This document shows, one piece after another, positions 2,961-46,799 of a stretch of 64,000 nucleotides of DNA. The notes under the pieces are model-generated. The model had not been told where the DNA came from. It ran no database searches and saw only the letters and a list, made by a program, of their open reading frames with translations. Numbering within the stretch: the stretch's first letter is position 1; each line of letters starts with the position of its first letter. The translations under genes were made by a program, and so were the position numbers. Where the stretch lies: NCBI RefSeq assembly GCF_056746865.1, contig NZ_CM163382.1; one strand, given 5' to 3'.

Positions 2961-3887
2961 ATGATGAAAATAGAGCCTTCAATTTTGCCTTCTCTTGCCT
3001 GGTTTGCGCTGATTGTTCGTGCCGGCAGTTTTTCCAGAGCCGCTTCTGAAATGGGTATTACGCGGGCCGCATTGTCCCAGAATTTAAAATCTCTTGAGGA
3101 ACGTCTTAACACCAAGCTGATATACCGTACGACCCGCAATATGTCGCTTACTGAGGAAGGACAGCGTCTGTATGAAGTGCTGGTGTCGGCTTTGGGGCAA
3201 ATTGATGATGCTTTGAAAGATGTTGGTGATACCCAACTTGAACCTACAGGCCTGTTGAGAATAAATTCCTCCCGTGTTGCAGCACGGATGCTTGTTGAGC
3301 CTCATATTGGCGAGTTTCTTACTCGTTACCCCAAAACAAAGATAGAACTCATTATGGATGACGGTTTATCTAACATTATTGCGGACGGCTGTGATGTGGG
3401 CATACGTCTTGAGCAAGGACTGGATGAGCATATGACTGCCATTCCTGTTTCTCCGCTTATTAAACTGGTTACTGTGGCATCGCCAGATTATTTAAAAGAG
3501 CACGGTATTCCTGAAACGCCTCAGGAACTGAGTAACCATAATTGCCTTCGGTTGCGGCATAAAAGTAGTGGTGCACTCTCTGCATGGGAGTTTTCTAATG
3601 TTGCGGGGGGTAATGAAGAGTTCGAAATAGAGGTTTCAGGTAAGTATATTTCTAATGATGACGAAAGCATGATACGAATGGCGCTGAATGGAACGGGTAT
3701 CATTCAACATCTGGATTTTGCAATCGCTGAACATATCAATGCGGGCAAGTTACAGCCGATTCTTGAGGATTGGGCTGTTTCATTTCCTGGATTTTATATT
3801 TATGTTTCATCACGGGTGAGAATGCCCTCTAAAGTTCGTGCTTTTATTGATTTTATGGTGGAGAAAAGAGTAAAACTCGAAAATTGA
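2961..3887 (+). CDS. LysR-family transcriptional regulator
   Basis: N-terminal LysR HTH (SFSRAASEMGITRAALSQNLKSLEERLNTKL) plus substrate-binding domain; start trimmed to MMKIEP within the track ORF 2898..3887; divergent from the hydrolase gene. Confidence 0.7.
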   Translation: MMKIEPSILPSLAWFALIVRAGSFSRAASEMGITRAALSQNLKSLEERLNTKLIYRTTRNMSLTEEGQRLYEVLVSALGQIDDALKDVGDTQLEPTGLLRINSSRVAARMLVEPHIGEFLTRYPKTKIELIMDDGLSNIIADGCDVGIRLEQGLDEHMTAIPVSPLIKLVTVASPDYLKEHGIPETPQELSNHNCLRLRHKSSGALSAWEFSNVAGGNEEFEIEVSGKYISNDDESMIRMALNGTGIIQHLDFAIAEHINAGKLQPILEDWAVSFPGFYIYVSSRVRMPSKVRAFIDFMVEKRVKLEN

Positions 3888-4042: not shown

Positions 4043-6918
<2,876 letters not shown>

Positions 6919-7468
6919 TTATCGTTCATGAGAAGCATAACGTAAAGGGAAGAGCTCGATTAGACGGCAGGATTTGTCAGGGGTTATGAACGAAATTCAT
7001 AAATCTGCTTGAGTGTTGCGATGAGTCGTGCAAGTTCGATATCCCTGCAATTCACAGTCTGATGAAGAAAAATGAATATCCATAAAAAATATATTGGTTT
7101 ATCCTGGTGTATATACCTACTTCGACGTATTCCCAATAGCGATTAATTAAAGACAGGTCATTATTATTCACTCTTAATAATGAATTATTCACTGCCCGCA
7201 GAGTAAGAAATATAACTTAAGTATCTATTTAATAACTTGCACAAAAAGCTAAATTTTCACCAATAAATAAAAATATAATCCCGCGCCCAACCACCTGATG
7301 AGTGGCTACAGACACTGGATATATTAGGTGGCGGTGTACTTTCTTACATAAAGGTATTTCCTTTTCTGCGGAAAAGGAAATCGGGGATTTCCCGGTTTTT
7401 CTGACAAGCAGACGCCACTATTTGTGTCTGCCTATGTTCGTTAATTCGTTCATCAGGAAATTATCTCA

Positions 7469-10400
7469 ATGTCACGTTATAAAACAGGTCATAAACAACC
7501 ACGATTTCGTTATTCAGTTCTGGCCCGCTGCGTGGCGTGGGCAAATATCTCTGTTCAGGTTCTTTTTCCACTCGCTGTCACCTTTACCCCAGTAATGGCG
7601 GCACGTGCGCAGCATGCGGTTCAGCCACGGTTGAGCATGGAAAATACCACGGTAATTGCAGATAATAATGTGGAGAAAAATTTCGCGTCGTTTGCCGCAA
7701 ATGCCGGGACATTTTTAAGCAGTCAGCCAGATAGCGATGCGACACGTAACTTTATTACCGGAATGGCCACCGCTAAAGCTAACCAGGAAATACAGGAGTG
7801 GCTCGGGAAATATGGTACAGCGCGCGTCAAACTGAATGTCGATAAAGATTTCTCGCTGAAGGATTCTTCGCTGGAAATGCTTTATCCGATTTATGATACG
7901 CCGACAAATATGTTGTTCACTCAGGGGGCAATACATCGTACAGACGATCGTACTCAGTCAAATATTGGTTTTGGCTGGCGTCATTTTTCAGGAAATGACT
8001 GGATGGCGGGGGTGAACACCTTTATCGACCATGATTTATCCCGTAGTCATACCCGCATTGGTGTTGGTGCGGAATACTGGCGTGATTATTTGAAATTGAG
8101 CGCCAATGGTTATATCCGGGCTTCTGGCTGGAAAAAATCGCCGGATGTTGAGGATTATCAGGAACGCCCGGCGAATGGCTGGGATATTCGTGCTGAGGGC
8201 TATTTACCCGCCTGGCCGCAGCTTGGCGCAAGCCTGATGTATGAACAGTATTATGGTGATGAAGTCGGGCTGTTTGGTAAAGATAAACGCCAGAAAGACC
8301 CGCATGCTATTTCTGCCGAGGTAACCTATACACCAGTGCCTCTTCTGACACTGAGCGCCGGGCATAAGCAGGGCAAGAGTGGTGAGAATGACACTCGCTT
8401 TGGCCTGGAAGTTAACTACCGAATTGGCGAACCTCTGGAAAAACAACTCGATACAGACAGCATTCGCGAGCGTCGAATGCTGGCAGGCAGCCGCTATGAC
8501 CTGGTTGAGCGTAATAACAACATCGTTCTTGAGTACCGCAAATCTGAAGTAATCCGTATTGCTCTGCCTGAGCGGATTGAAGGTAAGGGCGGTCAGACAC
8601 TTTCCCTGGGACTTGTGGTCAGCAAAGCAACTCACGGACTGAAAAATGTGCAGTGGGAAGCGCCGTCATTACTGGCTGAAGGTGGCAAAATTACCGGTCA
8701 GGGTAGTCAGTGGCAAGTAACGCTCCCGGCTTATCGTCCAGGCAAAGACAATTATTATGCGGTTTCAGCGATTGCCTACGATAACAAAGGCAATGCCTCG
8801 AAACGTGTGCAGACAGAAGTGGTTATTAGCGGAGCTGGTATGAGCGCCGATCGTACGGCGTTAACGCTTGACGGTCAGAGCCGTATTCAAATGCTTGCTA
8901 ACGGTAATGAGCAAAAACCGCTGGTGCTGTCTCTGCGCGACGCCGAGGGCCAGCCAGTCACGGGCATGAAAGATCAGATTAAGACTGAACTAACCTTCAA
9001 ACCGGCTGGAAATATTGTGACTCGTACCCTGAAGGCCACTAAATCACAGGCAAAGCCAACACTGGGTGAGTTCACCGAAACTGAAGCAGGGGTGTATCAG
9101 TCTGTCTTTACTACCGGAACGCAGTCAGGTGAGGCAACGATTACTGTTAGCGTTGATGACATGAGCAAAACTGTCACTGCAGAACTGCGGGCCACGATGA
9201 TGGATGTGGCAAACTCCACCCTGAGCGCTAACGAGCCGTCAGGTGACGTGGTTGCTGATGGTCAGCAAGCCTACACGCTGACACTGACAGCGGTGGACTC
9301 CGAGGGTAATCCGGTGACGGGAGAAGCCAGCCGCCTGCGACTTGTTCCGCAAGACACTAATGGTGTAACCGTTGGTGCCATTTCGGAAATAAAACCAGGG
9401 GTTTACAGCGCCACGGTTTCTTCGACCCGTGCCGGAAACGTTGTTGTGCGCGCCTTCAGCGAGCAGTATCAGCTGGGCACATTACAACAAACGCTGAAGT
9501 TTGTTGCCGGGCCGCTTGATGCAGCACATTCGTCCATCACCCTGAATCCTGATAAACCGGTGGTCGGCGGTACGCTTACGGCAATCTGGTCGACAAAAGA
9601 TGCCTATGACAACCCTGTGACCAGCCTCACGCCGGAAGCGCCGTCATTAGCGGGTGCCGCTGCTGTAGGTTCTACGGCATCGGGCTGGACAAATAATGGT
9701 GATGGGACGTGGACTGCGCAGATTACTCTCGGCTCTACGGCGGGTGAATTAGAAGTTATGCCGAAGCTAAATGGACAGGATGCGGCAGCAAATGCGGCAA
9801 AAGTAACCGTGGTGGCTGATGCGTTATCTTCAAACCAGTCGAAAGTCTCCGTCGCAGAAGATCACGTAAAAGCCGGCGAAAGCACAACCGTGACGCTTAT
9901 TGCAAAAGATGCACATGGCAACGCTATCAGTGGTCTTTCGTTGTCGGCAAGTTTGACGGGGACCGCCTCTGAAGGGGCGACCGTTTCCAGTTGGACCGAA
10001 AAAGGTGACGGTTCCTATGTTGCTACGTTGACTACAGGCGGAAAGACGGGCGAGCTTCGCGTCATGCCTCTCTTCAACGGCCAGCCAGCAGCCACCGAAG
10101 CCGCGCAGTTGACGGTCATCGCTGGAGAGATGTCATCAGCTAACTCTACGCTTGTTGCGGACAATAAGACTCCAACGGTTAAAACGACGACGGAACTCAC
10201 CTTCACCGTGAAGGATGCGTACGGGAACCCGGTCACCGGGCTGAAGCCAGATGCACCAGTGTTTAGCGGTGCCGCCAGCACGGGGAGTGAGCGTCCTTCA
10301 GCAGGAAGCTGGACAGAGAAAAGTAATGGGGTCTACGTGTCGACCTTAACGCTGGGATCTGCCGCGGGTCAGTTGTCTGTGATGCCGCGAGTGAACGGCC

Positions 10401-28998: not shown

Positions 28999-29822
28999 CT
29001 CTTGATACGTTATATCTGTGTACAGTTAAGCCCTTAGTATCGATTGATGATTGCCAGGCAACAGATAATAAAAAAGAAAAGAACTATTGAAGCCCAAAAC
29101 CTACGCTTGGACTGTTGTGAATGTTCAATAAGCTTAGTCTTATTTAATGTAAATATTGGTGCTAATTTGAAATGACGCTTTATTCATGGGAAACGCGTAG
29201 CGCAAATCAACTAAAATCAATGTAACTGTTTGTTGTTTAAGGTTTAATTGTCTGTGTCTGATATTTTATTGATTGTTTTAAATATTGTTTTTATTGTCAT
29301 TGTTATAATGTTGGCTATCTATTGCTGAATGGATTCAGCCTTAAAAGGCAGGTTGTTAAGGGATAGGCATAGAGTAATGACGTGTATGCATAACCAACAT
29401 CTTTACTCATTATGTCATTGAATGTTGACGCTATGTGTTTATGAGGTTGAGGTATTTTCAGTTGATCTGGATTGTTAAATTCATATAATGCGCCTTTACT
29501 CATGAATGGGCGTCAATACGTAGTGGGAAATTATAAATATTGAAATAGTCCAACTACTTCTTTATTACCAAAAATGAGTATCTGAATTTTAATATTGCAT
29601 TCTTGCGTGATTATCTCCTGAGTTTGACTTGTGATTACCTTTTTAAGGTATTTAGCGTAACTGTTTTTGAGCGAGCATCAGAGGTAAAGATAATCTTTTT
29701 GATAGTAATGTGGGATGTTATGCGTATGGCATCGCTGATGTTTATGGTTACCCCTTATGTGTGCTCAGGAATCCACAGGTAATCACTCATACTGAACAGC
29801 GATAAAAGATAAAGGTGTGTTC

Positions 29823-30911
29823 ATGAATTCATGTGATTTTCGTGTTTTTCTGCAAGAGTTCGGTACAACGGTTCATTTGTCATTGCCTGGTAGCGTATCC
29901 GAGAAAGAACGACTGCTACTCAAGCTGCTGATGCAGGGAATGTCTGTAACAGAAATATCACAGTACAGAAATCGCAGTGCAAAGACCATTTCACATCAAA
30001 AGAAACAGCTCTTTGAGAAACTGGGGATTCAGAGCGATATTACTTTCTGGCGGGATATTTTCTTTCAGTACAATCCGGAGATCATATCCGCCACGGGTAA
30101 TAATAGTCACAAATATATTAATGATAATCACTATCACCATATCGTCACGCCTGAAGCCATCAGTCTGGCGTTGGAAAACCATGAGTTTAAACCGTGGATC
30201 CAACCGGTTTTCTGCGCGCAGACTGGGGTACTGACGGGCTGTGAGGTGCTTGTCCGCTGGGAACATCCACAAACGGGAATTATCCCACCGGATCAGTTTA
30301 TTCCTCTGGCGGAGTCATCTGGTCTTATCGTCATAATGACTCGCCAGTTGATGAAACAGACTGCGGATATTCTGATGCCGGTAAAACATTTGCTGCCGGA
30401 TAATTTCCATATTGGCATCAACGTCTCGGCGGGTTGTTTTTTGGCCGCGGGATTTGAAAAAGAATGCCTGAACCTGGTCAAGAAATTAGGAAACGATAAA
30501 ATCAAACTGGTTCTCGAGCTAACGGAACGTAACCCTATTCCGGTAACGCCAGAAGCCAGAGCGATATTTGACAGCCTTCATCAGCACAACATTACCTTTG
30601 CGCTGGATGACTTTGGTACGGGTTATGCGACCTATCGTTACTTGCAGGCGTTCCCGGTCGATTTTATTAAGATCGATAAGTCATTTGTGCAAATGGCGAG
30701 CGTGGACGAAATATCCGGTCATATTGTGGACAATATTGTCGAACTGGCGCGTAAGCCTGGTCTGAGTATCGTGGCGGAAGGGGTAGAAACCCAGGAGCAG
30801 GCGGATTTAATGATCGGCAAAGGCGTTCACTTTTTGCAGGGCTATTTGTACTCTCCGCCAGTACCGGGTAATAAATTTATCTCTGAATGGGTAATGAAAG
30901 CAGGTGGTTGA
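29823..30911 (+). CDS. pdeL: c-di-GMP phosphodiesterase with N-terminal LuxR-type HTH and C-terminal EAL domain, 362 aa
   Basis: LuxR HTH (LLKLLMQGMSVTEISQYRNRSAKTISHQKKQLFEKLG) and EAL-domain motifs (ELTE, DDFGTGYA). Confidence 0.85.
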   Translation: MNSCDFRVFLQEFGTTVHLSLPGSVSEKERLLLKLLMQGMSVTEISQYRNRSAKTISHQKKQLFEKLGIQSDITFWRDIFFQYNPEIISATGNNSHKYINDNHYHHIVTPEAISLALENHEFKPWIQPVFCAQTGVLTGCEVLVRWEHPQTGIIPPDQFIPLAESSGLIVIMTRQLMKQTADILMPVKHLLPDNFHIGINVSAGCFLAAGFEKECLNLVKKLGNDKIKLVLELTERNPIPVTPEARAIFDSLHQHNITFALDDFGTGYATYRYLQAFPVDFIKIDKSFVQMASVDEISGHIVDNIVELARKPGLSIVAEGVETQEQADLMIGKGVHFLQGYLYSPPVPGNKFISEWVMKAGG

Positions 30912-30952
30912 TGTAAACCGCTATTCACAGCGCATCGGGAGGTTGGCAGCGA

Positions 30953-31885
30953 TTAATTCTCCCGATGCAGTAAATCCTGATAGATCCCCGTTAATATGCC
31001 ATTTGGCGAAAATTGTTTTTTAATCCACTGCGTCACCTGACCGGTGGCAGAGTGCTGGGTCGCCAGTAACATGCGTGAATCCTGGCGCGGATTATGGATT
31101 TGGCGGGTAACCAGCAGGGATTGCTCCATCGCCTCGCGAACCATGTAATCCGGCAAAAAACCAATTCCTTCACCTAAAATCTGGCACTGACATTTGGTGT
31201 TGAAATCTGGCACCAGAATCGACTCCTGCCCATGCAGCAACCAGCCCACTTTTTTATTAATCGTATGCGCGGTGTCTTCCACCATGATATTGGGATAGAG
31301 ACGCAGCTGGCTTTCGGCGATGGGTTCCGGCACAAAGGCTAACGGGTGATCCGGGGCGATAGCAAAAGCCCAGCGAATCGCGCCAATCTCCGTGTAATCA
31401 ATGCCGCCACCGTCCAGCAGCGTGTCGGGTGCGCCGATAGCAATATTCGCCTGATTATTAATAATCGCATCCCAGACGCCGTTATACACTTCGGTCGTCA
31501 CGGTAATCTGGCAGGTTGGAAACTGCTTTTTCAGTACCTGTAATAAGCGTGCGGTGTGTTTGGGCGTATAAAGCAGTTGGTTAATACAAATGCGCACCCG
31601 TGCTTCTATACCCTGCGAAATAGTATCGATGCTGCGTTTGATGGCGTGAAAATCATTCAGCAGGTCGGTAGCTTTGCGGAAAAAATAACGCCCGGACTCC
31701 GTTAACTCAATGCTGCGGGTACTGCGAGTGAACAGCACCACATCCAGCCCTGTTTCCATTCGCTTGATGGTGTAGCTAATGGCGGAAGTGGTTAAACCCA
31801 ACTCTTCTGCGGCTTTACTGAAGCTGCCAAAACGCGCAGCGGTAGTAAATGCCAACAGATTCTCTTCGGTAAAAATTGAGTTCAT
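30953..31885 (-). CDS. yahB: LysR-family regulator, 310 aa
   Basis: LysR HTH (FSKAAEELGLTTSAISYTIKRMETGL); divergent from the yahC–yahJ side. Confidence 0.75.
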   Translation of the reverse strand: MNSIFTEENLLAFTTAARFGSFSKAAEELGLTTSAISYTIKRMETGLDVVLFTRSTRSIELTESGRYFFRKATDLLNDFHAIKRSIDTISQGIEARVRICINQLLYTPKHTARLLQVLKKQFPTCQITVTTEVYNGVWDAIINNQANIAIGAPDTLLDGGGIDYTEIGAIRWAFAIAPDHPLAFVPEPIAESQLRLYPNIMVEDTAHTINKKVGWLLHGQESILVPDFNTKCQCQILGEGIGFLPDYMVREAMEQSLLVTRQIHNPRQDSRMLLATQHSATGQVTQWIKKQFSPNGILTGIYQDLLHREN

Positions 31886-38250: not shown

Positions 38251-39633
38251 ATGAAAGAAAACAATAGCCGCCGTGAATTTCTGAGCCAGAGCGGTAAGAT
38301 GGTCACCGCCGCCGCGCTGTTTGGTACGTCTGTGCCGCTCGCCCATGCGGCAGTCTCTGGCACAATCCATTGCGACGCGAATAACACCATGAAAATCACT
38401 GACCCGCACTACTATCTCGACAACGTGCTGCTGGAAACCGGTTTTGACTACGAAAACGGTGTGGCGGTACAGACCCGCACGGCGCACCAGACCGTAGAGA
38501 TTCAGAACGGCAAAATTGTTGCCCTGCGCGAGAACAAGCAGCATCCGGACGCCACGCTGCCGCACTATGACGCTGGCGGTAAGCTGATGCTGCCCACCAC
38601 CCGCGACATGCATATTCATCTCGACAAAACCTTTTACGGCGGGCCGTGGCGCTCGCTCAATCGCCCGGCAGGCACCACCATCCAGGACATGATCAAACTC
38701 GAGCAGAAAATGCTGCCGGAGCTGCAACCGTACACTCAGGAACGAGCGGAAAAACTGATCGATTTATTGCAGTCGAAAGGCACTACCATTGCCCGCAGCC
38801 ACTGCAATATCGAACCGGTTTCCGGCCTGAAAAATCTGCAAAATTTGCAGGCGGTGCTGGCGCGACGTCAGGCGGGCTTCGAGTGTGAAATTGTCGCCTT
38901 CCCGCAGCACGGTTTGCTGCTGTCGAAATCGGAACCCTTAATGCGTGAAGCGATGCAGGCGGGGGCGCATTACGTCGGCGGTCTGGATCCGACCAGTGTT
39001 GATGGCGCGATGGAAAAATCCCTCGATACCATGTTCCAGATTGCGCTGGACTACGACAAAGGCGTTGATATTCACCTGCACGAAACCACTCCGGCAGGCG
39101 TGGCAGCCATCAATTATATGGTTGAAACGGTGGAGAAAACGCCGCAACTGAAGGGCAAGCTGACCATCAGCCACGCCTTTGCGCTGGCAACGCTCAATGA
39201 GCAACAGGTAGATGAACTGGCGCACCGGATGGCGGCGCAGCAAATTTCTATCGCCTCGACGGTGCCGATTGGCACGCTGCATATGCCGCTCAAACAGTTG
39301 CACGACAAAGGCGTAAAAGTGATGACCGGCACCGACAGCGTTATCGACCACTGGTCGCCTTACGGCCTGGGCGACATGCTGGAAAAAGCCAATCTGTACG
39401 CGCAGCTCTATATTCGTCCTAACGAACAGAACCTCTCCCGCTCGCTGTTTTTAGCCACTGGCGATGTATTGCCGCTCAACGAAAAAGGCGAGCGCGTGTG
39501 GCCCAAAGCGCAGGATGATGCCAGCTTTGTGCTGGTGGACGCCTCCTGTTCCGCCGAGGCGGTGGCGCGTATCTCGCCGAGAACGGCGACGTTCCATAAA
39601 GGGCAACTGGTGTGGGGGAGTGTGGCAGGTTGA
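38251..39633 (+). CDS. yahJ: amidohydrolase-superfamily deaminase with Tat-type signal peptide, 460 aa
   Basis: N-terminal twin-arginine motif (SRREFLSQSGKMVTAAALFG...AHA); metal-dependent hydrolase His motifs (HIHLDKT, HLHET). Confidence 0.75.
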   Translation: MKENNSRREFLSQSGKMVTAAALFGTSVPLAHAAVSGTIHCDANNTMKITDPHYYLDNVLLETGFDYENGVAVQTRTAHQTVEIQNGKIVALRENKQHPDATLPHYDAGGKLMLPTTRDMHIHLDKTFYGGPWRSLNRPAGTTIQDMIKLEQKMLPELQPYTQERAEKLIDLLQSKGTTIARSHCNIEPVSGLKNLQNLQAVLARRQAGFECEIVAFPQHGLLLSKSEPLMREAMQAGAHYVGGLDPTSVDGAMEKSLDTMFQIALDYDKGVDIHLHETTPAGVAAINYMVETVEKTPQLKGKLTISHAFALATLNEQQVDELAHRMAAQQISIASTVPIGTLHMPLKQLHDKGVKVMTGTDSVIDHWSPYGLGDMLEKANLYAQLYIRPNEQNLSRSLFLATGDVLPLNEKGERVWPKAQDDASFVLVDASCSAEAVARISPRTATFHKGQLVWGSVAG

Positions 39634-39927
39634 TACGCATTTGAAACGCCTGCAATGGTGAATCGTAAGAGATTTAAAGCCCCAGGGAGTGGGGCGGGAA
39701 TGGTTTGTTAATGAATGATCCTGAACTTTATAATCTCCCGGCATAATTTCCAGGGGATTATTTGAGAGAAATACACAAAAGTGAGTTTTAACAATATTTA
39801 TCAAGCCATAAATGTGACCGGCTTCGGATAAAAAAGATTAAACATAGAAAAACCAATGATCCTCTTGCTGATGGTTATCAACAGTAATTAAGATGTGATT
39901 TTTTTCCGTAATCGCGAAAATATTCTC

Positions 39928-40338
39928 ATGACCATAAAAGAAAAAATCTCACAAAAATATCCCCATGCTTCCTTTTGTACTTTTGGCGATTCAGCAGCGT
40001 TGGCCGATCACCTCGCAACGTTGATTGCGACAGGTGTTAAAACAGCTTCCTGTGGTTCGCTGGCGGGATGTATTGAAGACAACGCATTTCCGATGATTGG
40101 TGAGTATAAGATTGTAGAAAATAGCCGTGGTGAGCCTGTCTGTGTTATCAGAGTGATTGGCCTGCATTTACTGCGCTTTTCTGATGTCACCGCGGAGCTT
40201 GCCCGTAAGGAAGGTGAAGGTGACCTCAGTCTTGAATATTGGCGTAATGAACACCGTCGTTTTTTCCAGGCAGAAGGATGCTATTCACCCGAAATGGACG
40301 TTATCTTTGAAGAATATGCCCTTATTGACGTTGTGTAG
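39928..40338 (+). CDS. ASCH-domain protein (about 136 aa; start uncertain, track ORF begins at 39895)
   Basis: ASCH-like GxKT motif (LIATGVKTASCG) and C-terminal ELARKEGEG...EYWRNEHRRFF segment; lies in an AT-rich stretch. Confidence 0.5.
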   Translation: MTIKEKISQKYPHASFCTFGDSAALADHLATLIATGVKTASCGSLAGCIEDNAFPMIGEYKIVENSRGEPVCVIRVIGLHLLRFSDVTAELARKEGEGDLSLEYWRNEHRRFFQAEGCYSPEMDVIFEEYALIDVV

Positions 40339-40588
40339 ATAACTATTTTTCTACGCGAAATAAGCTCACAAACATAAAATATCGCTAATTTTGTTTATTT
40401 TGCTATTTTTTACGTGATGAATGTCACACTTATTATTGCTGCCCGTTTTGTCCATATTTATAACCAAATTTTTAATAGCTGCCTGAAATAGGGCTGTTTA
40501 TTCTGCATAAAAATATTCGAAAATTCTTATTCTCTCCAGCGCGCTAATTTGGGCGAACACTTCCTGACTACCCTGCAATGAGGCTGAA

Positions 40589-41575
40589 ATGATGAATAAA
40601 CGTTTTGTTATCAATATGGTGTCTTCGCTGTTATTAGGCGCTGCGCTAATTTCTGCGCCGCTCCAGGCAGCGGAAAAAGTCGTGGTGAATATCTCTAAAG
40701 TCGATGGTATGCCGTGGTTTAATCGCATGGGCGAAGGTGTGGTCGAGGCGGGTAAAGCCTTTGGTGTTAATGCGTCACAGGTGGGGCCTTCAAGTACTGA
40801 TGCTCCGCAACAGGTTAAAATCATTGAGGATTTAATCGCCCGTAAGGTTAATGCAATTACAATTGTGCCAAACGATGCCAACGTGCTGGAACCGGTATTC
40901 AAAAAAGCGCGAGATGCCGGAATTGTGGTTCTGACCAACGAATCCCCCGGTCAGCCAAGTGCTAACTGGGATATCGAAATCATTGATAACGAAAAATTTG
41001 CCGCTGAATATGTTGAACATATGGCGAAACGCATGGGTGGCAAGGGCGGCTATGTGATTTACGTGGGTAGTTTGACCGTGCCGCAGCATAACTTATGGGC
41101 TGACTTGCTGGTGAAATACCAGAAAGAGCATTACCCGGATATGCATGAAGTTACCCGCCGCATGCCGGTTGCCGAGAGTGTGGATGACTCACGTCGTACC
41201 ACACTGGACCTGATGAAAACCTATCCTGACTTGAAAGCGGTTGTCTCCTTTGGTTCAAACGGTCCGATTGGCGCGGGACGTGCAGTGAAAGAGAAACGGG
41301 CGAAAAATAAAGTCGCAGTCTATGGCATGATGATCCCTTCACAGGCGGCATCACTGATTAAAAGTGGTGATATCACCGAAGGGATTACTTACGATCCGGC
41401 CTCTGCAGGTTACGCACTCGCGGCCGTCGCCAGCACGTTGCTGAAGGGTGAAGAGATCAAACCTGGATTAGAAATGCAGAATCTGGGGAAGGCCGACGTA
41501 GATATAGATAAGCGAATTATCCGTTTCCATAAGGTACTGCTGGTCAACAAAGACAATATCGACTCACTTTATTAA
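40589..41575 (+). CDS. periplasmic substrate-binding protein of a ribose/AI-2-type (CUT2) ABC importer, LsrB/RbsB-like, 328 aa
   Basis: Signal peptide (LLLGAALISAPLQAAEK) and type-I periplasmic binding fold; C-terminal ...NKDNID... resembles LsrB as I recall it. Confidence 0.7.
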   Translation: MMNKRFVINMVSSLLLGAALISAPLQAAEKVVVNISKVDGMPWFNRMGEGVVEAGKAFGVNASQVGPSSTDAPQQVKIIEDLIARKVNAITIVPNDANVLEPVFKKARDAGIVVLTNESPGQPSANWDIEIIDNEKFAAEYVEHMAKRMGGKGGYVIYVGSLTVPQHNLWADLLVKYQKEHYPDMHEVTRRMPVAESVDDSRRTTLDLMKTYPDLKAVVSFGSNGPIGAGRAVKEKRAKNKVAVYGMMIPSQAASLIKSGDITEGITYDPASAGYALAAVASTLLKGEEIKPGLEMQNLGKADVDIDKRIIRFHKVLLVNKDNIDSLY

Positions 41576-41623
41576 TCCATTTCTTCGGGGCGAAAGCCCC
41601 GATTCTTATTGCCAGGGGATGTT

Positions 41624-43108
41624 ATGGAAACCTTCCTTTCCCTTCGTCATATCAACAAAACGTTTCATGCCACGCGAGCGCTGCGCGATGTTTCTCTCGA
41701 CTTTATGTCGGGTGAAGTGCACTGTCTTGCCGGGCAAAACGGCTGTGGTAAATCGACGTTGATTAAAATTATGTCCGGAGTTTATCGCCCGGATGAGGGA
41801 GCGGAAATTACGCTTGGTGGGAAAAACTGGTCAAAGCTGACACCCGCCGCTTCGGTGGCGCAGGGGATTCAGGTGATTTATCAGGACCTCTCTTTATTTC
41901 CTAACCTGAGTGTCTGGGAGAATATCGCCGTGAATCACTATCACCACGGTCTGTTTGTTAACCGCCGTCGTCTGCGTGAGGTGGCGCAGGCGGCAATGAC
42001 CAGTATTAACGTCACATTGCCACTGGATACGCTCGTTTCTGAGCTTTCAATTGCCCGCTGTCAGCTGGTGGCAATTTGCCGTGCACTGGCGCAGGACGCA
42101 CGGTTGATCGTGATGGATGAACCAACCGCTTCGCTGACCCATCAGGAAGTGCAAGGGTTATTACAGGTGGTGCATCAATTGCGGGAACGCGGGATCTGCG
42201 TGGTCTTCGTCAGTCATCGTCTGGAAGAGGTGATGGAAGTTTCCGACCGTATTTCAGTGTTGAAAGATGGTGAGCTGGTCGGGACCTTTCCGGCTGCAGA
42301 GATGACCACAAAACAACTCGGTTTCCTGATGACCGGCCAGGAGTTTGAATATCAGGTGCGAGAGTTGTGGCAGGGAAAATCCAGCATCCCAGTGCTGGAG
42401 GTGCGTAATTTAAGTCGTCATGGGGAATATCAAAATATTAACTTGCGGGTGGAAGCGGGCGAAGTGGTGTCGATTGTTGGCCTGCTTGGTGCGGGGCGCA
42501 CGGAATTATGTCTGAGTCTGTTTGGTATGACCCGACCGGATGCTGGCGAGATCCTCATCAACGGCCAGCTGGTTACACTGCATAGTAACCAGGACGCCAT
42601 CCGCCACTGTATTGGTTATGTTTCGGAAGATCGCATGTCGCGTGGTTTGGTGATGGCGCAATCTATTGAAGACAACATCATTAGCACTGTTTTTCACAAG
42701 GTAAAAGATCGCTTCGGCTTTCTGAGTGAAGCTAAAGTGCGTGACCTGGTGGACAGGCTAATCAAGGCATTGACCATCAAAGTCTCTGACCCACATCTCC
42801 CGGTGAATACGCTTTCTGGGGGTAACGCGCAGCGAGTATCGATCGCCAAATGGCTGGCGATTGGGCCACGACTGTTGATTCTCGATAGCCCGACTGTCGG
42901 TGTTGATATCGCCAACAAAGCAGGAATATACGGCATTATCAGCGATCTGGCGGCTCATGGCATTGCGGTATTGATGATCTGCGATGAAATTGAAGAAGCG
43001 TGGTATCAAAGCCACCGGATTTTGGTAATGCAGAAAGGTCAGATCACCCATAGCTTCCTGCCTGACAGCAGTTCTCAGGCCAGGATTGCGGAGGTGGTAA
43101 ATGGCTGA
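41624..43108 (+). CDS. ABC transporter ATP-binding protein with two fused nucleotide-binding domains (about 494 aa)
   Basis: Two Walker A-type (GQNGCGKST; GLLGAGRTEL) and two signature/Walker B regions (LSIARCQLVAI...IVMDEPTASL; LSGGNAQRV...LILDSPTVGVD). Confidence 0.8.
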   Translation: METFLSLRHINKTFHATRALRDVSLDFMSGEVHCLAGQNGCGKSTLIKIMSGVYRPDEGAEITLGGKNWSKLTPAASVAQGIQVIYQDLSLFPNLSVWENIAVNHYHHGLFVNRRRLREVAQAAMTSINVTLPLDTLVSELSIARCQLVAICRALAQDARLIVMDEPTASLTHQEVQGLLQVVHQLRERGICVVFVSHRLEEVMEVSDRISVLKDGELVGTFPAAEMTTKQLGFLMTGQEFEYQVRELWQGKSSIPVLEVRNLSRHGEYQNINLRVEAGEVVSIVGLLGAGRTELCLSLFGMTRPDAGEILINGQLVTLHSNQDAIRHCIGYVSEDRMSRGLVMAQSIEDNIISTVFHKVKDRFGFLSEAKVRDLVDRLIKALTIKVSDPHLPVNTLSGGNAQRVSIAKWLAIGPRLLILDSPTVGVDIANKAGIYGIISDLAAHGIAVLMICDEIEEAWYQSHRILVMQKGQITHSFLPDSSSQARIAEVVNG

Positions 43109-44072
43109 ACTGAAAAAACGTCATGAATTCTGGCTGGCATTACTGATTGTGGGGCTGTTTGTCGGCCTTGCCTGGCGCAGCGACGAGTTTCTGACATTCG
43201 GTAATTTGTACGATCTCGCCAATAACTATGCCATGTTGACTATTCTCGCCTGTGGTTTGTTTGTGGTGTTGATTTCCGGTGGAATTGATATTTCGTTTCC
43301 AGCAATGACCATCATTGCGCAATACGGCATGGTGCTGTTGCTGCAAAAAATTGGTGGCAACTTCGCTGTCGCGTTTGCCCTGGCGGGCGGCATCGGCATT
43401 TTACTTGGCTTAATTAACGCCTTACTGGTTAATCGCCTACGGGTGCCTTCTATTATCATCACTATCTCGACGCTGAATATTTTCTATGGCCTGCTGTTAT
43501 GGTTGAGTAAAGGTGTGTGGCTGTACGACTTTCCGCCGTGGTTTGAGCAGGGGGTTATGTTGTTCAAGTACACCGATGCTGATGGCTATGACTATGGCCT
43601 TGGTCTACCGCTGATCGCCATGATTACGGTGGTGCTGCTAACAGCGTTTATCATGAATTTCACCAGTGTAGGGCGCAAAATTTATGCCCTTGGCGGGAAC
43701 CGTGAATCCGCCAGTCGCATCGGCTTTAGCGTGCTGAAACTGCAACTTTTCGTCTACGGCTATATGGGATTGATGTCTGGTGCTGCGGGTGTAGTGCAGT
43801 CGTGGACGGTGATGACTGTCGCCCCCGATTCTCTTCTGGGTTATGAGCTGACAGTACTGGCTGCGGTGGTGCTTGGCGGCACTAGTTTGCTCGGCGGGCG
43901 CGGCACGTTAACCGGTACTTTGCTCGGCGTGGTGTTGTTGGCAGTGATGCAAAACGGGCTAAATTTATTGGGAGTCTCGTCTTACTGGCAAACATTGATC
44001 ACAGGCATCATCATCGTTGCCAGCATTAGCGCCACGGCGTGGAGTCAGCATCAGAACCGGAGTCTGCTATGA
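43101..44072 (+). CDS. ABC transporter permease (RbsC/LsrC-like), 323 aa
   Basis: Polytopic membrane ORF overlapping the ATPase stop by 8 nt. Confidence 0.75.
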   Translation: MAELKKRHEFWLALLIVGLFVGLAWRSDEFLTFGNLYDLANNYAMLTILACGLFVVLISGGIDISFPAMTIIAQYGMVLLLQKIGGNFAVAFALAGGIGILLGLINALLVNRLRVPSIIITISTLNIFYGLLLWLSKGVWLYDFPPWFEQGVMLFKYTDADGYDYGLGLPLIAMITVVLLTAFIMNFTSVGRKIYALGGNRESASRIGFSVLKLQLFVYGYMGLMSGAAGVVQSWTVMTVAPDSLLGYELTVLAAVVLGGTSLLGGRGTLTGTLLGVVLLAVMQNGLNLLGVSSYWQTLITGIIIVASISATAWSQHQNRSLL

Positions 44073-45025
44073 AAAAATCGTGGCGTAATAACGTTGAGTT
44101 TTACTTGATCGGCCTGTTGGTGCTAACTGTTGCCGCCTTCAGCATTACTATGCCGGAGATTTTCTGGTCGATAAGTAATTTCCAGTCCGTCGCTTCGCAA
44201 ATGCCCGTGCTGGGCATTCTGGCGTTGGCTATGGCGGTGACCATGCTTTGCGGTGGCATTAACTTGTCAATTATAGCCACTGCTAACGCCTGTTCACTGG
44301 TGATGGCGTGGGTGGCGACTCAGTATCCACCGGGTATTGCTACGGTTGTCGCTACGCTGCTGGCGGGCGCTGGCGCGGCGGTGATAATCGGTTTATGTAA
44401 CGGCGTATTGATTGCTGGTATTCGAGTGTCGCCAATTCTTGCAACACTCGGGATGATGACGTTGCTCAAAGGGGTAAATATTCTGGTGACAGGCGGTAGC
44501 GCCATTGCCAATTATCCCTCATGGGTGCTGTGGTTGAATCATGCACAGTGGTTCGGTATTCCGCTACCGATGTGGTTGTTTGCCGCAGTGGCGCTGGGGC
44601 TGTGGATATTGCTGGAGAAAACGCCGCTCGGTAAATCCATTTATCTGATTGGTTCTAACGAACGAGCAACACTTTACTCCGGCATTAACACTCGTCGGGT
44701 GCTGATTTGGGTTTATGTCATTTCCGCCTTGCTTTGTGCGGTAGCGGCATTTTTGATGATGTCGAAACTCAACTCGGCTAAGGCCTCTTATGGCGAATCG
44801 TACTTGCTGGTGTCAATCCTCGCGGCAGTACTCGGCGGGGTTAATCCGGACGGCGGCAGCGGGCGGATAATTGGTATGGTGCTGGCGCTGTTTCTTCTGC
44901 AAATTATTGAAAGCGGCTTCAATATTCTCGGTATAAGCCCCTACCTGACGATGGCCTTATGGGGAACGTTGCTGCTCTGTTTCATTCAGGCTCGCGGCAT
45001 GTTGGGGCTGGATCGGGTGGTTTAA
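44069..45025 (+). CDS. ABC transporter permease (RbsC/LsrD-like), about 318 aa
   Basis: Polytopic membrane ORF; ATGA start/stop overlap with the preceding permease; track ORF 44039..45025 trimmed to MKKSWRNN. Confidence 0.7.
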   Translation: MKKSWRNNVEFYLIGLLVLTVAAFSITMPEIFWSISNFQSVASQMPVLGILALAMAVTMLCGGINLSIIATANACSLVMAWVATQYPPGIATVVATLLAGAGAAVIIGLCNGVLIAGIRVSPILATLGMMTLLKGVNILVTGGSAIANYPSWVLWLNHAQWFGIPLPMWLFAAVALGLWILLEKTPLGKSIYLIGSNERATLYSGINTRRVLIWVYVISALLCAVAAFLMMSKLNSAKASYGESYLLVSILAAVLGGVNPDGGSGRIIGMVLALFLLQIIESGFNILGISPYLTMALWGTLLLCFIQARGMLGLDRVV

Positions 45026-45111
45026 ATATTGGCTATATTCAATGGACGCGTTTTGCCGCGATGACATATCAGGCATCGCCAAATACACATAGCTAATCAG
45101 GAGTAAACACA

Positions 45112-46161
45112 ATGAAGATCAAAGCTGTTGGTGCATATTCCGCTAAACAACCACTTGAATCGATGGATATCACCCGGCGTGAACCGGGACCGCATGATGT
45201 CAAAATTGAAATCGCTTACTGTGGCGTCTGCCATTCCGATCTCCACCAGGTCCGTTCCGAGTGGGCGGGGACGGTTTACCCCTGCGTGCCGGGTCATGAA
45301 ATTGTGGGGCGTGTGGTAGCCGTTGGTGATCAGGTAGAAAAACATGCGCCGGGCGATCTGGTCGGTGTCGGCTGCATTGTCGACAGTTGTAAACATTGCG
45401 AAGAGTGTGAAGACGGGCTGGAAAACTACTGTGATCACATGACCGGCACCTATAACTCGCCGACGCCGGACGAACCGGGCCATACTCTGGGCGGCTACTC
45501 ACAACAGATCGTCGTTCATGAGCGATATGTTCTGCGTATTCGTCACCCGCAAGAGCAGCTGGCGGCGGTGGCTCCTTTGTTGTGTGCAGGGATCACCACG
45601 TATTCGCCGCTACGTCACTGGCAGGCCGGGCCGGGTAAAAAAGTGGGCGTGGTCGGCATCGGCGGTCTGGGACATATGGGGATTAAGCTGGCCCACGCGA
45701 TGGGGGCGCATGTGGTGGCATTTACCACTTCTGAGTCAAAACGCGAAGCGGCAAAAGCCCTGGGGGCCGATGAAGTTGTTAACTCACGCAATGCCGATGA
45801 GATGGCGGCTCATCTCAAGAGTTTCGATTTCATTTTGAATACAGTAGCTGCGCCACATAATCTCGACGATTTTACCACCTTGCTGAAGCGTGATGGCACC
45901 ATGACGCTGGTTGGTGCGCCTGCGACACCGCATAAATCGCCGGAAGTTTTCAACCTGATCATGAAACGCCGTGCGATAGCCGGTTCTATGATTGGCGGCA
46001 TTCCAGAAACTCAGGAGATGCTCGATTTTTGCGCCGAACATGGCATCGTGGCTGATATAGAGATGATTCGGGCCGATCAAATTAATGAAGCCTATGAGCG
46101 AATGCTGCGTGGTGATGTGAAATATCGTTTTGTTATCGATAATCGCACACTAACAGACTGA
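45112..46161 (+). CDS. yahK: zinc-dependent alcohol/aldehyde reductase (MDR family), 349 aa
   Basis: Zn-binding GHEIVG and C-x2-C-x2-C-x7-C motif; Rossmann GVVGIGGLGHMG. Confidence 0.85.
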   Translation: MKIKAVGAYSAKQPLESMDITRREPGPHDVKIEIAYCGVCHSDLHQVRSEWAGTVYPCVPGHEIVGRVVAVGDQVEKHAPGDLVGVGCIVDSCKHCEECEDGLENYCDHMTGTYNSPTPDEPGHTLGGYSQQIVVHERYVLRIRHPQEQLAAVAPLLCAGITTYSPLRHWQAGPGKKVGVVGIGGLGHMGIKLAHAMGAHVVAFTTSESKREAAKALGADEVVNSRNADEMAAHLKSFDFILNTVAAPHNLDDFTTLLKRDGTMTLVGAPATPHKSPEVFNLIMKRRAIAGSMIGGIPETQEMLDFCAEHGIVADIEMIRADQINEAYERMLRGDVKYRFVIDNRTLTD

Positions 46162-46433
46162 AAAAATTAATAAATACCCTGTGGTTTAACATATTAACTT
46201 CGCTCTCCACTTAACTTTTTAGTTAAGGAGAGCGAAATAATATCAAAGTAGCAGTAAAACCTATAACGTAAATTCAAATTGTTAAATTAACTCCCTCCAG
46301 TACACAATACTTCACACGTTAGTTATGAGCGATTTCTGATAGTAGACTGGCCCCCTGAATCTCCAGACAACCAATATCACTTAAATAAGTGATAGTCTTA
46401 ATACTAGTTTTTAGACTAGTCATTGGAGAGCAG

Positions 46434-46799
46434 ATGATTGATGTCTTAGGACCGGAGAAACGCAGACGGCGTACTACACAGGAAAAGATCGCTATTGTTC
46501 AGCAGAGTTTTGAACCGGGAATGACGGTCTCCCTTGTTGCCCGGCAACACGGTGTGGCAGCCAGCCAGTTATTTCTCTGGCGCAAGCAATACCAGGAGGG
46601 AAGTCTTACTGCTGTGGCCGCAGGAGAGCAGGTCGTTCCTGCCTCTGAACTTGCTGCTGCCATGAAGCAGATTAAAGAACTCCAGCGCCTGCTCGGCAAA
46701 AAAACGATGGAAAATGAACTCCTTAAAGAAGCCGTTGAATACGGGCGTGCAAAAAAGTGGATAGCGCACGCGCCCTTATTGCCCGGGGATGGGGAGTAA
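46434..46799 (+). CDS. insC: IS2 OrfA (InsC), 121 aa
   Basis: Matches recalled InsC ([29 protein letters not shown]...). Confidence 0.9.

Follow-up and report, generated by a model that had tools for sequence, protein, structure and literature searches.

An AauABCD importer between yahJ and yahK with a predicted AraC/CRP promoter, and its probable loss by deletion in K-12-type Escherichia coli

The block at positions 39634-45111 of a 64,000-nucleotide stretch from NCBI RefSeq assembly GCF_056746865.1, contig NZ_CM163382.1 (hereafter the window, meaning the whole stretch of DNA that was analysed), lies between yahJ and yahK and can be identified with high confidence as the accessory L-arabinose uptake (Aau) ABC importer AauABCD together with an unrelated upstream ASCH-domain gene, with the mechanism and the deletion origin proposed below. 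The locus is already known, publications of 2024-2025 having described its structure and ligand, the regulator, the partner kinase and its role in fitness in vivo. Beyond this identification, we hold it to be moderately probable that the Aau-type cassette, with a PBAD-like promoter of its own, is mobile and has long belonged to the AraC/CRP regulon in Enterobacterales and Pasteurellaceae, that it was resident at yahJ-yahK in an Escherichia ancestor, and that K-12 and about half of the E. coli genomes are double-deletion derivatives, so that the block is not a pathogen-specific acquired island.

The binding protein of the window is identical at 326 of its 328 residues (99.4%) to PDB 9I1M, which is AauA of enterohaemorrhagic E. 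coli (EHEC), the binding protein of the Aau transporter (Cottam et al., Nat Commun 2025, PMC12307932). The Aau gene set of EHEC comprises the binding protein Z0415, the ATPase Z0416-7 and the permeases Z0418/Z0419, in O-island 17 (OI-17; Cottam et al., Nat Commun 2024, PMC11127945). The same four genes are found in the window at the OI-17 site upstream of yahK, in the same yahJ/ASCH-to-yahK position and the same order as in EHEC, with gene-by-gene nucleotide identities of 98.3-98.5% to an O157:H7 genome. All on the + strand, they are aauA (40589..41575), encoding the periplasmic binding protein of 328 aa with a signal peptide and a Peripla_BP_4 fold; aauB (41624..43108), encoding a fused ATPase of 494 aa with two nucleotide-binding domains (NBDs); aauC (43101..44072), encoding permease 1 of 323 aa; and aauD (44069..45025), encoding permease 2 of 318 aa. 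This layout was taken from the open reading frame (ORF) listing of the window and from the RefSeq annotation of strain 118UI, which is 100% identical over the block; 118UI, a urine isolate, is one of the human and environmental isolates that are the closest matches to the window.

A first-pass annotation, made from the sequence alone, had described an ASCH-domain gene plus a complete CUT2-type importer absent from K-12, and the ORFs and the Pfam and NCBIfam profile matches agree on this content. An ATPase of about 500 aa with two NBDs, AraH/RbsC-type permeases and a Peripla_BP_4 binding protein (Pfam match E 6e-63, which confirms the periplasmic-binding fold asked about in that annotation) are all present, as is the overlap it had seen between the permease start and stop codons (4 nt, ATGA, between aauC and aauD); aauB and aauC overlap by a further 8 nt (ATGGCTGA). 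BLASTN comparison with K-12 bore out the absence of the block, the yahJ-yahK spacer of that strain being 376 bp long. The annotation was also right that kinase, isomerase and regulator are all missing in cis between yahJ and yahK, and published work places these functions in trans (AraC, AraB). Naming the substrate by NCBIfam equivalogs was tried and abandoned, the RhaS, LsrB, AraG, AraH and RbsC models all scoring under their curated cut-offs; the rhamnose-binding protein RhaS (TIGR02637) reaches 136 bits against a cut-off of 342. AauB aligns end to end with the AraG, YtfR, XylG, RbsA, MglA and LsrA models, again below every equivalog cut-off.

The earlier view that the substrate could not be inferred is superseded by the published crystal structure. 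The ring form of a ketopentose can only be a furanose, and the guess of a furanose in the first-pass annotation fits the published ligand, alpha-D-ribulose. In the crystal complex this sugar is contacted by Trp43, His167, Glu118, Lys37, Glu196 and Ser223 (PMC12307932), and six of these six contacts (K37, W43, E118, H167, E196, S223) are kept in AauA of the window. Isothermal titration calorimetry gave a dissociation constant (KD) of 1.98 uM for D-ribulose and 598 uM for L-arabinose; L-ribulokinase AraB phosphorylates the imported D-ribulose, and the aau-dependent growth gain needs D-ribulose plus L-arabinose and is not seen with L-arabinose alone (PMC12307932). The aau promoter responds to L-arabinose only, its induction being lost in an araC mutant and restored by complementation, and an aau mutant loses in competition in the streptomycin-treated mouse gut (PMC11127945). 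Given the 99.4% identity of AauA, the conservation of all six ligand contacts and the intact aauBCD genes, the EHEC results on uptake were transferred to the window. L-arabinose-bound AraC and cAMP-CRP would thus switch on a PBAD-like promoter at about 40413-40504, where the AraC dependence is published and the assignment of the sites is inferred; periplasmic AauA would bind alpha-D-ribulose with a KD of about 2 uM, and L-arabinose only weakly (KD about 0.6 mM), and would hand the sugar over to the permeases AauC and AauD, for which the fused ATPase AauB supplies the energy; and D-ribulose, once imported, would be phosphorylated by the unlinked AraB and enter the pentose-phosphate pathway. The capture, transport and phosphorylation steps are the EHEC experiments of Cottam et al., carried over to the window by sequence identity.

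A promoter combining a CRP-like site with an AraC I1-I2 pair would account for the AraC dependence of aau. The predicted CRP-like site CGTGATGAATGTCACA (40413..40428, + strand) matches TGTGA-N6-TCACA at 9 of 10 positions and, measured from start to start, precedes by 27 bp the first of two predicted AraC-like half-sites, I1 TGCCCGTTTTGTCCATA (40440-40456, + strand) and I2 TAACCAAATTTTTAATA (40461-40477, + strand), which are 17 bp each and stand in a tandem 21-bp register over 40440..40477, a layout like that of araBAD I1-I2. A candidate -10 hexamer, TATTCT (40499..40504, + strand), was recognized by comparison with the TACTGT of PBAD, and the motif TGTTTAYTCT at this place also occurs in Klebsiella and Franconibacter. 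When both strands of the 64-kb window are scored, the tandem AraC-like site ranks first with 15 of 20, the runner-up reaching 13 and the benchmark, K-12 araBAD I1-I2, scoring 17. A score of at least 14 for the tandem site is reached by 53 of the 81 sequences that precede aauA orthologs, against 1.3% of shuffles, and the CRP-like site lies at a fixed offset of 27-28 bp in most Aau-type loci of other genera. The CRP/AraC layout is kept in Klebsiella, Franconibacter, Mangrovibacter, Symbiopectobacterium, Sodalis, Yersinia and Pasteurellaceae, and the motif is missing from a distant group of 55-58% identity (Morganella, Vibrio and Photobacterium). A search for single half-sites (TAGC-N7-TCCATA) showed no enrichment in the window (34 matches, 44.9 expected) and was replaced by the tandem 21-bp-register model and the cross-species comparison; TAGCTGCC at 40476, considered as an I2 lying 36 bp from I1, was dropped because the orthologous promoters show the 21-bp register. 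A text search of PMC11127945 and PMC12307932 found no AraC binding site for the aau promoter, so these papers are believed to report the AraC dependence without one.

The second part of the proposal concerns the origin of the presence/absence pattern. The full block is found in 2,211 of 5,426 complete E. coli genomes, a partial match that amounts to a scar in 2,828, and nothing matching in 387; the ASCH segment alone is found in 2,213 of the 5,426, and these near-equal counts indicate that the block and the ASCH segment co-occur almost perfectly. The K-12 spacer, as seen by BLASTN and a five-way alignment, is composed of pieces of the block: it keeps 62 bp downstream of yahJ (39634..39695, + strand), the 3' end of the ASCH coding sequence (48 bp plus the stop codon), in frame, an ASCH-aauA spacer that has diverged and reaches as far as the right half of the CRP-like site (TCACACTTA), and, again in frame, the final 72 bp of aauD (44954-45025), followed by the unchanged aauD-yahK spacer (45026..45111, + strand) that is common to all alleles. 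RefSeq annotates a 75-bp C-terminal pseudogene fragment in this K-12 spacer. In other genera the conservation of aauD extends to the C-terminus, so the K-12 fragments must be what is left of complete genes. The alignment thus reads as two deletions in the K-12 allele, of about 39696-40290 and about 40433-44953, the left edge of the first being placed at 39695/39696, and the same scar layout recurs in nearly all sampled E. coli genomes that do not carry the block. In the cryptic Escherichia sp. E2593, yahJ and an intact ASCH gene come first, then 57 bp, then the aauD remnant seen in K-12 (with its right breakpoint at window position 44952), and finally yahK; this allele, with ASCH intact and aau gone, implies the loss of aau first and of ASCH second. 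The locus would accordingly have been resident at yahJ-yahK in an Escherichia ancestor and lost in K-12-type lineages by two successive deletions. A divergent Escherichia labelled E. coli (NZ_JAATUR010000022.1) has the order pdeL, ASCH 3' remnant, aauABCD and yahK, with 83-93% nucleotide identity to the window. At positions 5684-7700 of that record, which correspond to window 29010-31011 and 40239 onward, pdeL is joined to the last ~100 bp of ASCH, yahB-yahJ and most of the ASCH gene being gone.

Other observations were made on the distribution of the block. The E. coli genome NZ_AP027754.1 (3288-4044) has a larger, IS1-mediated deletion that extends from the 3' part of yahE to the end of the yahJ-aau region and leaves IS1B directly next to yahK, and the 387 E. 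coli genomes without a block match may include larger deletions of this IS1 type. Among plasmid-typed records there are 9 places matching the whole block and 2 matching the ASCH segment. A 4.7-kb contig, SFEK01000152.1, in a metagenome-assembled genome named 'Bacteroidales bacterium' is 98.6% identical to the aau locus of the window and is almost certainly an E. coli contig that was mis-binned.

Outside Escherichia, the four genes aauABCD stay together in the loci that the genome scan found, and the identity of the binding proteins to AauA runs from 92% in Klebsiella down to 55% in Vibrio. Clustering of the flanking ORFs, together with NCBIfam annotation, shows that the cassette adjoins araC in 27 loci (491 bits, cut-off 208) and the L-ribulokinase gene araB in 9 (801 bits), that an FGGY pentulose kinase (TIGR01315, 720 bits) lies directly downstream of it in 19 more distant ones, and that a XylB-like FGGY kinase stands beside it in 14 Pasteurellaceae loci. 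These araC, araB and kinase neighbours give independent support for a role in the pentulose/arabinose pathway. ASCH, yahJ and yahK are neighbours of the cassette in Escherichia only. Taken together with the conserved promoter, the data suggest that in many genera Aau-type importers are part of the arabinose regulon, and that the cassette's place in the AraC regulon is ancient and not an innovation of EHEC.

The Aau papers call the locus a 'horizontally acquired O-island' (PMC11127945, PMC12307932), and a recent genomic island that entered the yahJ-yahK interval in this lineage and whose acquisition junction is the AT-rich 5' end would be in keeping with the absence of the block from K-12, with a GC content of 0.37-0.44 over about 39600-40800 (0.55-0.58 in yahJ and 0.47-0.55 in the transporter genes), with the patchy distribution of the cassette across Gammaproteobacteria, and with the lack of a match to the E. 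albertii, E. fergusonii and Salmonella representatives in the genome scan. The remnants that K-12-type genomes retain (ASCH 48 bp, ASCH-aauA spacer, aauD 72 bp) are nevertheless what a deletion leaves behind, and E2593 joins an intact ASCH gene to the very same aauD remnant. In NZ_JAATUR010000022.1 the aau genes stand beside yahK with a block identity of about 91%, in line with that of their flanks, and neither an integrase, a transposase or insertion sequence (IS), a tRNA or attachment site nor flanking direct repeats were found at the block edges, the only IS being an IS2 beyond yahK. The low GC noticed in the first-pass annotation is real, but its reading as an acquisition junction relative to K-12 is contradicted by the ASCH and aauD 3' remnants of K-12, the AT-rich 5' part being the ASCH gene plus two promoter-bearing spacers. 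We therefore regard a recent island as quite unlikely and retain ancestral residence followed by two deletions.

With respect to the cargo, the CRP and AraC I1-I2 promoter conserved before aauA orthologs in several genera, and the araC and araB neighbours of the cassette, would also fit an importer whose physiological substrate is a sugar of the arabinose pathway (L-arabinose or L-ribulose), D-ribulose being a fortuitous high-affinity ligand. This is judged improbable, if somewhat less so than a recent island, in view of the constants given above (about 600 uM for L-arabinose, 2 uM for D-ribulose), the crystal complex, the growth gain with D-ribulose plus L-arabinose but not with L-arabinose alone (PMC12307932), and the dedicated pentulose kinase that adjoins the distant Rbl-like relatives. 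Far less credible still is a second autoinducer 2 (AI-2) uptake system of the LsrB type, suggested in the first-pass annotation, in which AauA would bind R-THMF/DPD and import a quorum signal. The name given by the NCBI annotation pipeline PGAP and RefSeq is 'autoinducer 2 ABC transporter substrate-binding protein', the LsrB model NF011937 matches the binding protein at 111 bits, and LsrB structures are among its PDB matches; yet this score is far under the cut-off of 384 bits, and the RhaS model scores higher. The criteria of Pereira for LsrB-type receptors, as quoted in PMC3386761, are more than 63% identity to Salmonella LsrB plus K35, D116, D166, Q167, P220 and A222. AauA is 27% identical to E. 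coli LsrB, on which the residue numbering was checked, and has K37, E118, Q166, H167, G222 and N224 at the six AI-2 contacts, so that K35 is the single match; neither lsrK, lsrR, lsrF nor lsrG is present in or beside the block, and AauA thus fails in identity, in contact residues and in linked lsr genes. Its crystal ligand is D-ribulose (PMC12307932). The AI-2 reading is largely refuted, and the RefSeq name is wrong and should be D-ribulose/L-arabinose-binding protein AauA.

Some points weigh against the account of an ancestral, AraC-regulated D-ribulose importer preferred here. Among the loci returned by the genome scan there is none from E. albertii, E. fergusonii or Salmonella, so an earlier acquisition, by the Escherichia ancestor, may have preceded the residence at yahJ-yahK. 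The AraC and CRP sites are read from sequence, and I1 has no good TAGC box. Two substitutions, D202V and I306M in 9I1M numbering, distinguish AauA of the window from 9I1M, and neither position contacts the ligand. Finally, L-ribulose is not among the sugars listed as tested on AauA (PMC12307932), so D-ribulose may not be the sole high-affinity cargo.

Alleles of aauB differ between carriers. The window gene is intact, with CAG (Gln) as codon 87 at 41882-41884, and aauB is also intact in SE11 and in the divergent Escherichia NZ_JAATUR010000022.1. In the O157:H7 genome compared, whose alleles are otherwise about 98% identical to those of the window, codon 87 is instead the amber codon TAG (3751-3753 of its locus), and O55:H7 DEC5D has a 1-bp deletion in aauB around nt 809. 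EDL933/TUV93-0 are said to carry a non-functional Aau (PMC12307932), and the amber codon fits both this remark and the split naming Z0416/Z0417. The reference EHEC lineage thus seems to be losing the system that was described as an EHEC fitness factor.

Comparison with known systems places the window locus among, and sets it apart from, several CUT2-type importers. The Rbl system of Citrobacter rodentium (RblABCD-RblK-RblI, ROD_24811-61) is likewise a CUT2-type D-ribulose importer, with ~60% reported identity to the Aau components, but it brings along a kinase and an isomerase and responds to D-ribulose as inducer, whereas the window locus has neither enzyme; the FGGY D-ribulokinase and KpsF-like isomerase that mark an Rbl-type operon are absent between yahJ and yahK. 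The 55-58% group of Morganella, Vibrio and Photobacterium has the Rbl architecture, with an FGGY pentulose kinase directly downstream, and this Rbl-like group lacks the AraC/CRP promoter that the window locus has. AraFGH, the canonical AraC-regulated L-arabinose importer, shares the AraC/CRP regulon with Aau, and the best NCBIfam matches of AauB and AauC are AraG (418 bits) and AraH. These matches are nonetheless under the equivalog cut-offs, Aau has two permease genes instead of one, and AauA, with its low affinity for L-arabinose, is closest to RhaS and LsrB and not to AraF. LsrACDB belongs to the same ABC subfamily and has the same binding-protein fold, and the LsrB ligand is also a furanose-type five-carbon ring; the binding-protein gene, however, is first in aau and last in lsr, and aau lacks lsrK/R/F/G. 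PDB 3D02, a binding protein from Klebsiella pneumoniae that matches AauA at 627 bits over residues 27-328, comes from an orphan Klebsiella aauABCD cassette (92% protein identity) that has the AraC/CRP promoter layout of the window locus and lies at a different chromosomal site without ASCH, yahJ or yahK neighbours. It was deposited by structural genomics as a 'putative LacI-type transcriptional regulator', a misleading name.

The ASCH-domain gene (39928..40338, + strand; 136 aa, with an alternative ORF start GTG at 39895) does not belong to the transporter, and its position beside aau is treated as incidental. Its product has a Pfam ASCH match of E 8e-22 and is a stand-alone protein of the COG 'YhfF' type, with PDB relatives (1T62 and 3S9X) that both lack an assigned function; NCBIfam and PADLOC searches returned no family match. 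Homologs at 50-65% identity, some of them named 'YhfF', are common in Enterobacterales in unrelated neighbourhoods, no conserved neighbour being seen in Kosakonia or Yersinia, and in the loci from the genome scan the gene does not stand beside aauABCD outside Escherichia. A functional link to Aau or to the yah cluster was considered and no basis for it was found. Characterised ASCH proteins are N4-acetylcytidine amidohydrolases with a YqfB-type GKTR/GKER octapeptide, in which a catalytic Lys and a Thr/Glu are accompanied by Arg (bioRxiv 10.64898/2026.02.27.708502). Read by eye, the window protein has GVKTASCG, where a catalytic Lys and a hydroxyl residue (Ser/Thr) are plausible and the Arg is missing, and a PDB search gave it no detectable similarity to a YqfB entry.

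Among the remaining features of the block and its flanks, yahJ (38251-39633) and yahK (45112-46161) are placed by the ORF listing and the RefSeq annotation of 118UI. The piece of spacer downstream of yahJ that K-12 retains contains a hairpin, GCCCCA-GGGAG-TGGGGC (39679-39695). A scan for terminator-like structures found a second hairpin, rich in GC, in the aauA-aauB gap (TCGGGGC-GAAA-GCCCCGA followed by TTCTTATT; 41585..41602, + strand); it is likely an attenuator within the operon or a stabiliser of the mRNA, which would help to keep the binding protein in excess. An Rfam search of 39400-45300 returned zero RNA families at E <= 0.1. Farther out, an IS2 copy lies between yahK and yahL (~46345-47673; TnpA 276 bits, TnpB 708 bits) and is missing from strain 118UI. 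ARAGORN calls a tRNA-Ser(GGA) between yahL and yahM (48898-48978), but the Rfam tRNA model gives no match there even at E <= 1, and the call probably is false or reflects a degenerate tRNA-like sequence. Palindromic units resembling repetitive extragenic palindromes and bacterial interspersed mosaic elements (REP/BIME) form tandem arrays at 53161-53632 (5.1 copies x 93 bp) and 58277-58993 (7.6 x 94 bp), with 96% matches; related units fill the yahG-yahI spacer ('yahH') of Escherichia sp. E2593. A yahH ORF is annotated in this spacer of K-12 and O55:H7 and not in the window, where the spacer is ~95 bp long.

These results bear on how the Aau importer is understood in E. coli and beyond. The conserved CRP and AraC I1-I2 promoter provides a testable molecular basis for the reported dependence of aau on AraC. 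The deletion scars explain the pattern of presence and absence in E. coli and bear on the published account of a system acquired by EHEC; if ancestral residence with later double deletion is true, the carriage of aau by EHEC would be a retention and not a gain.

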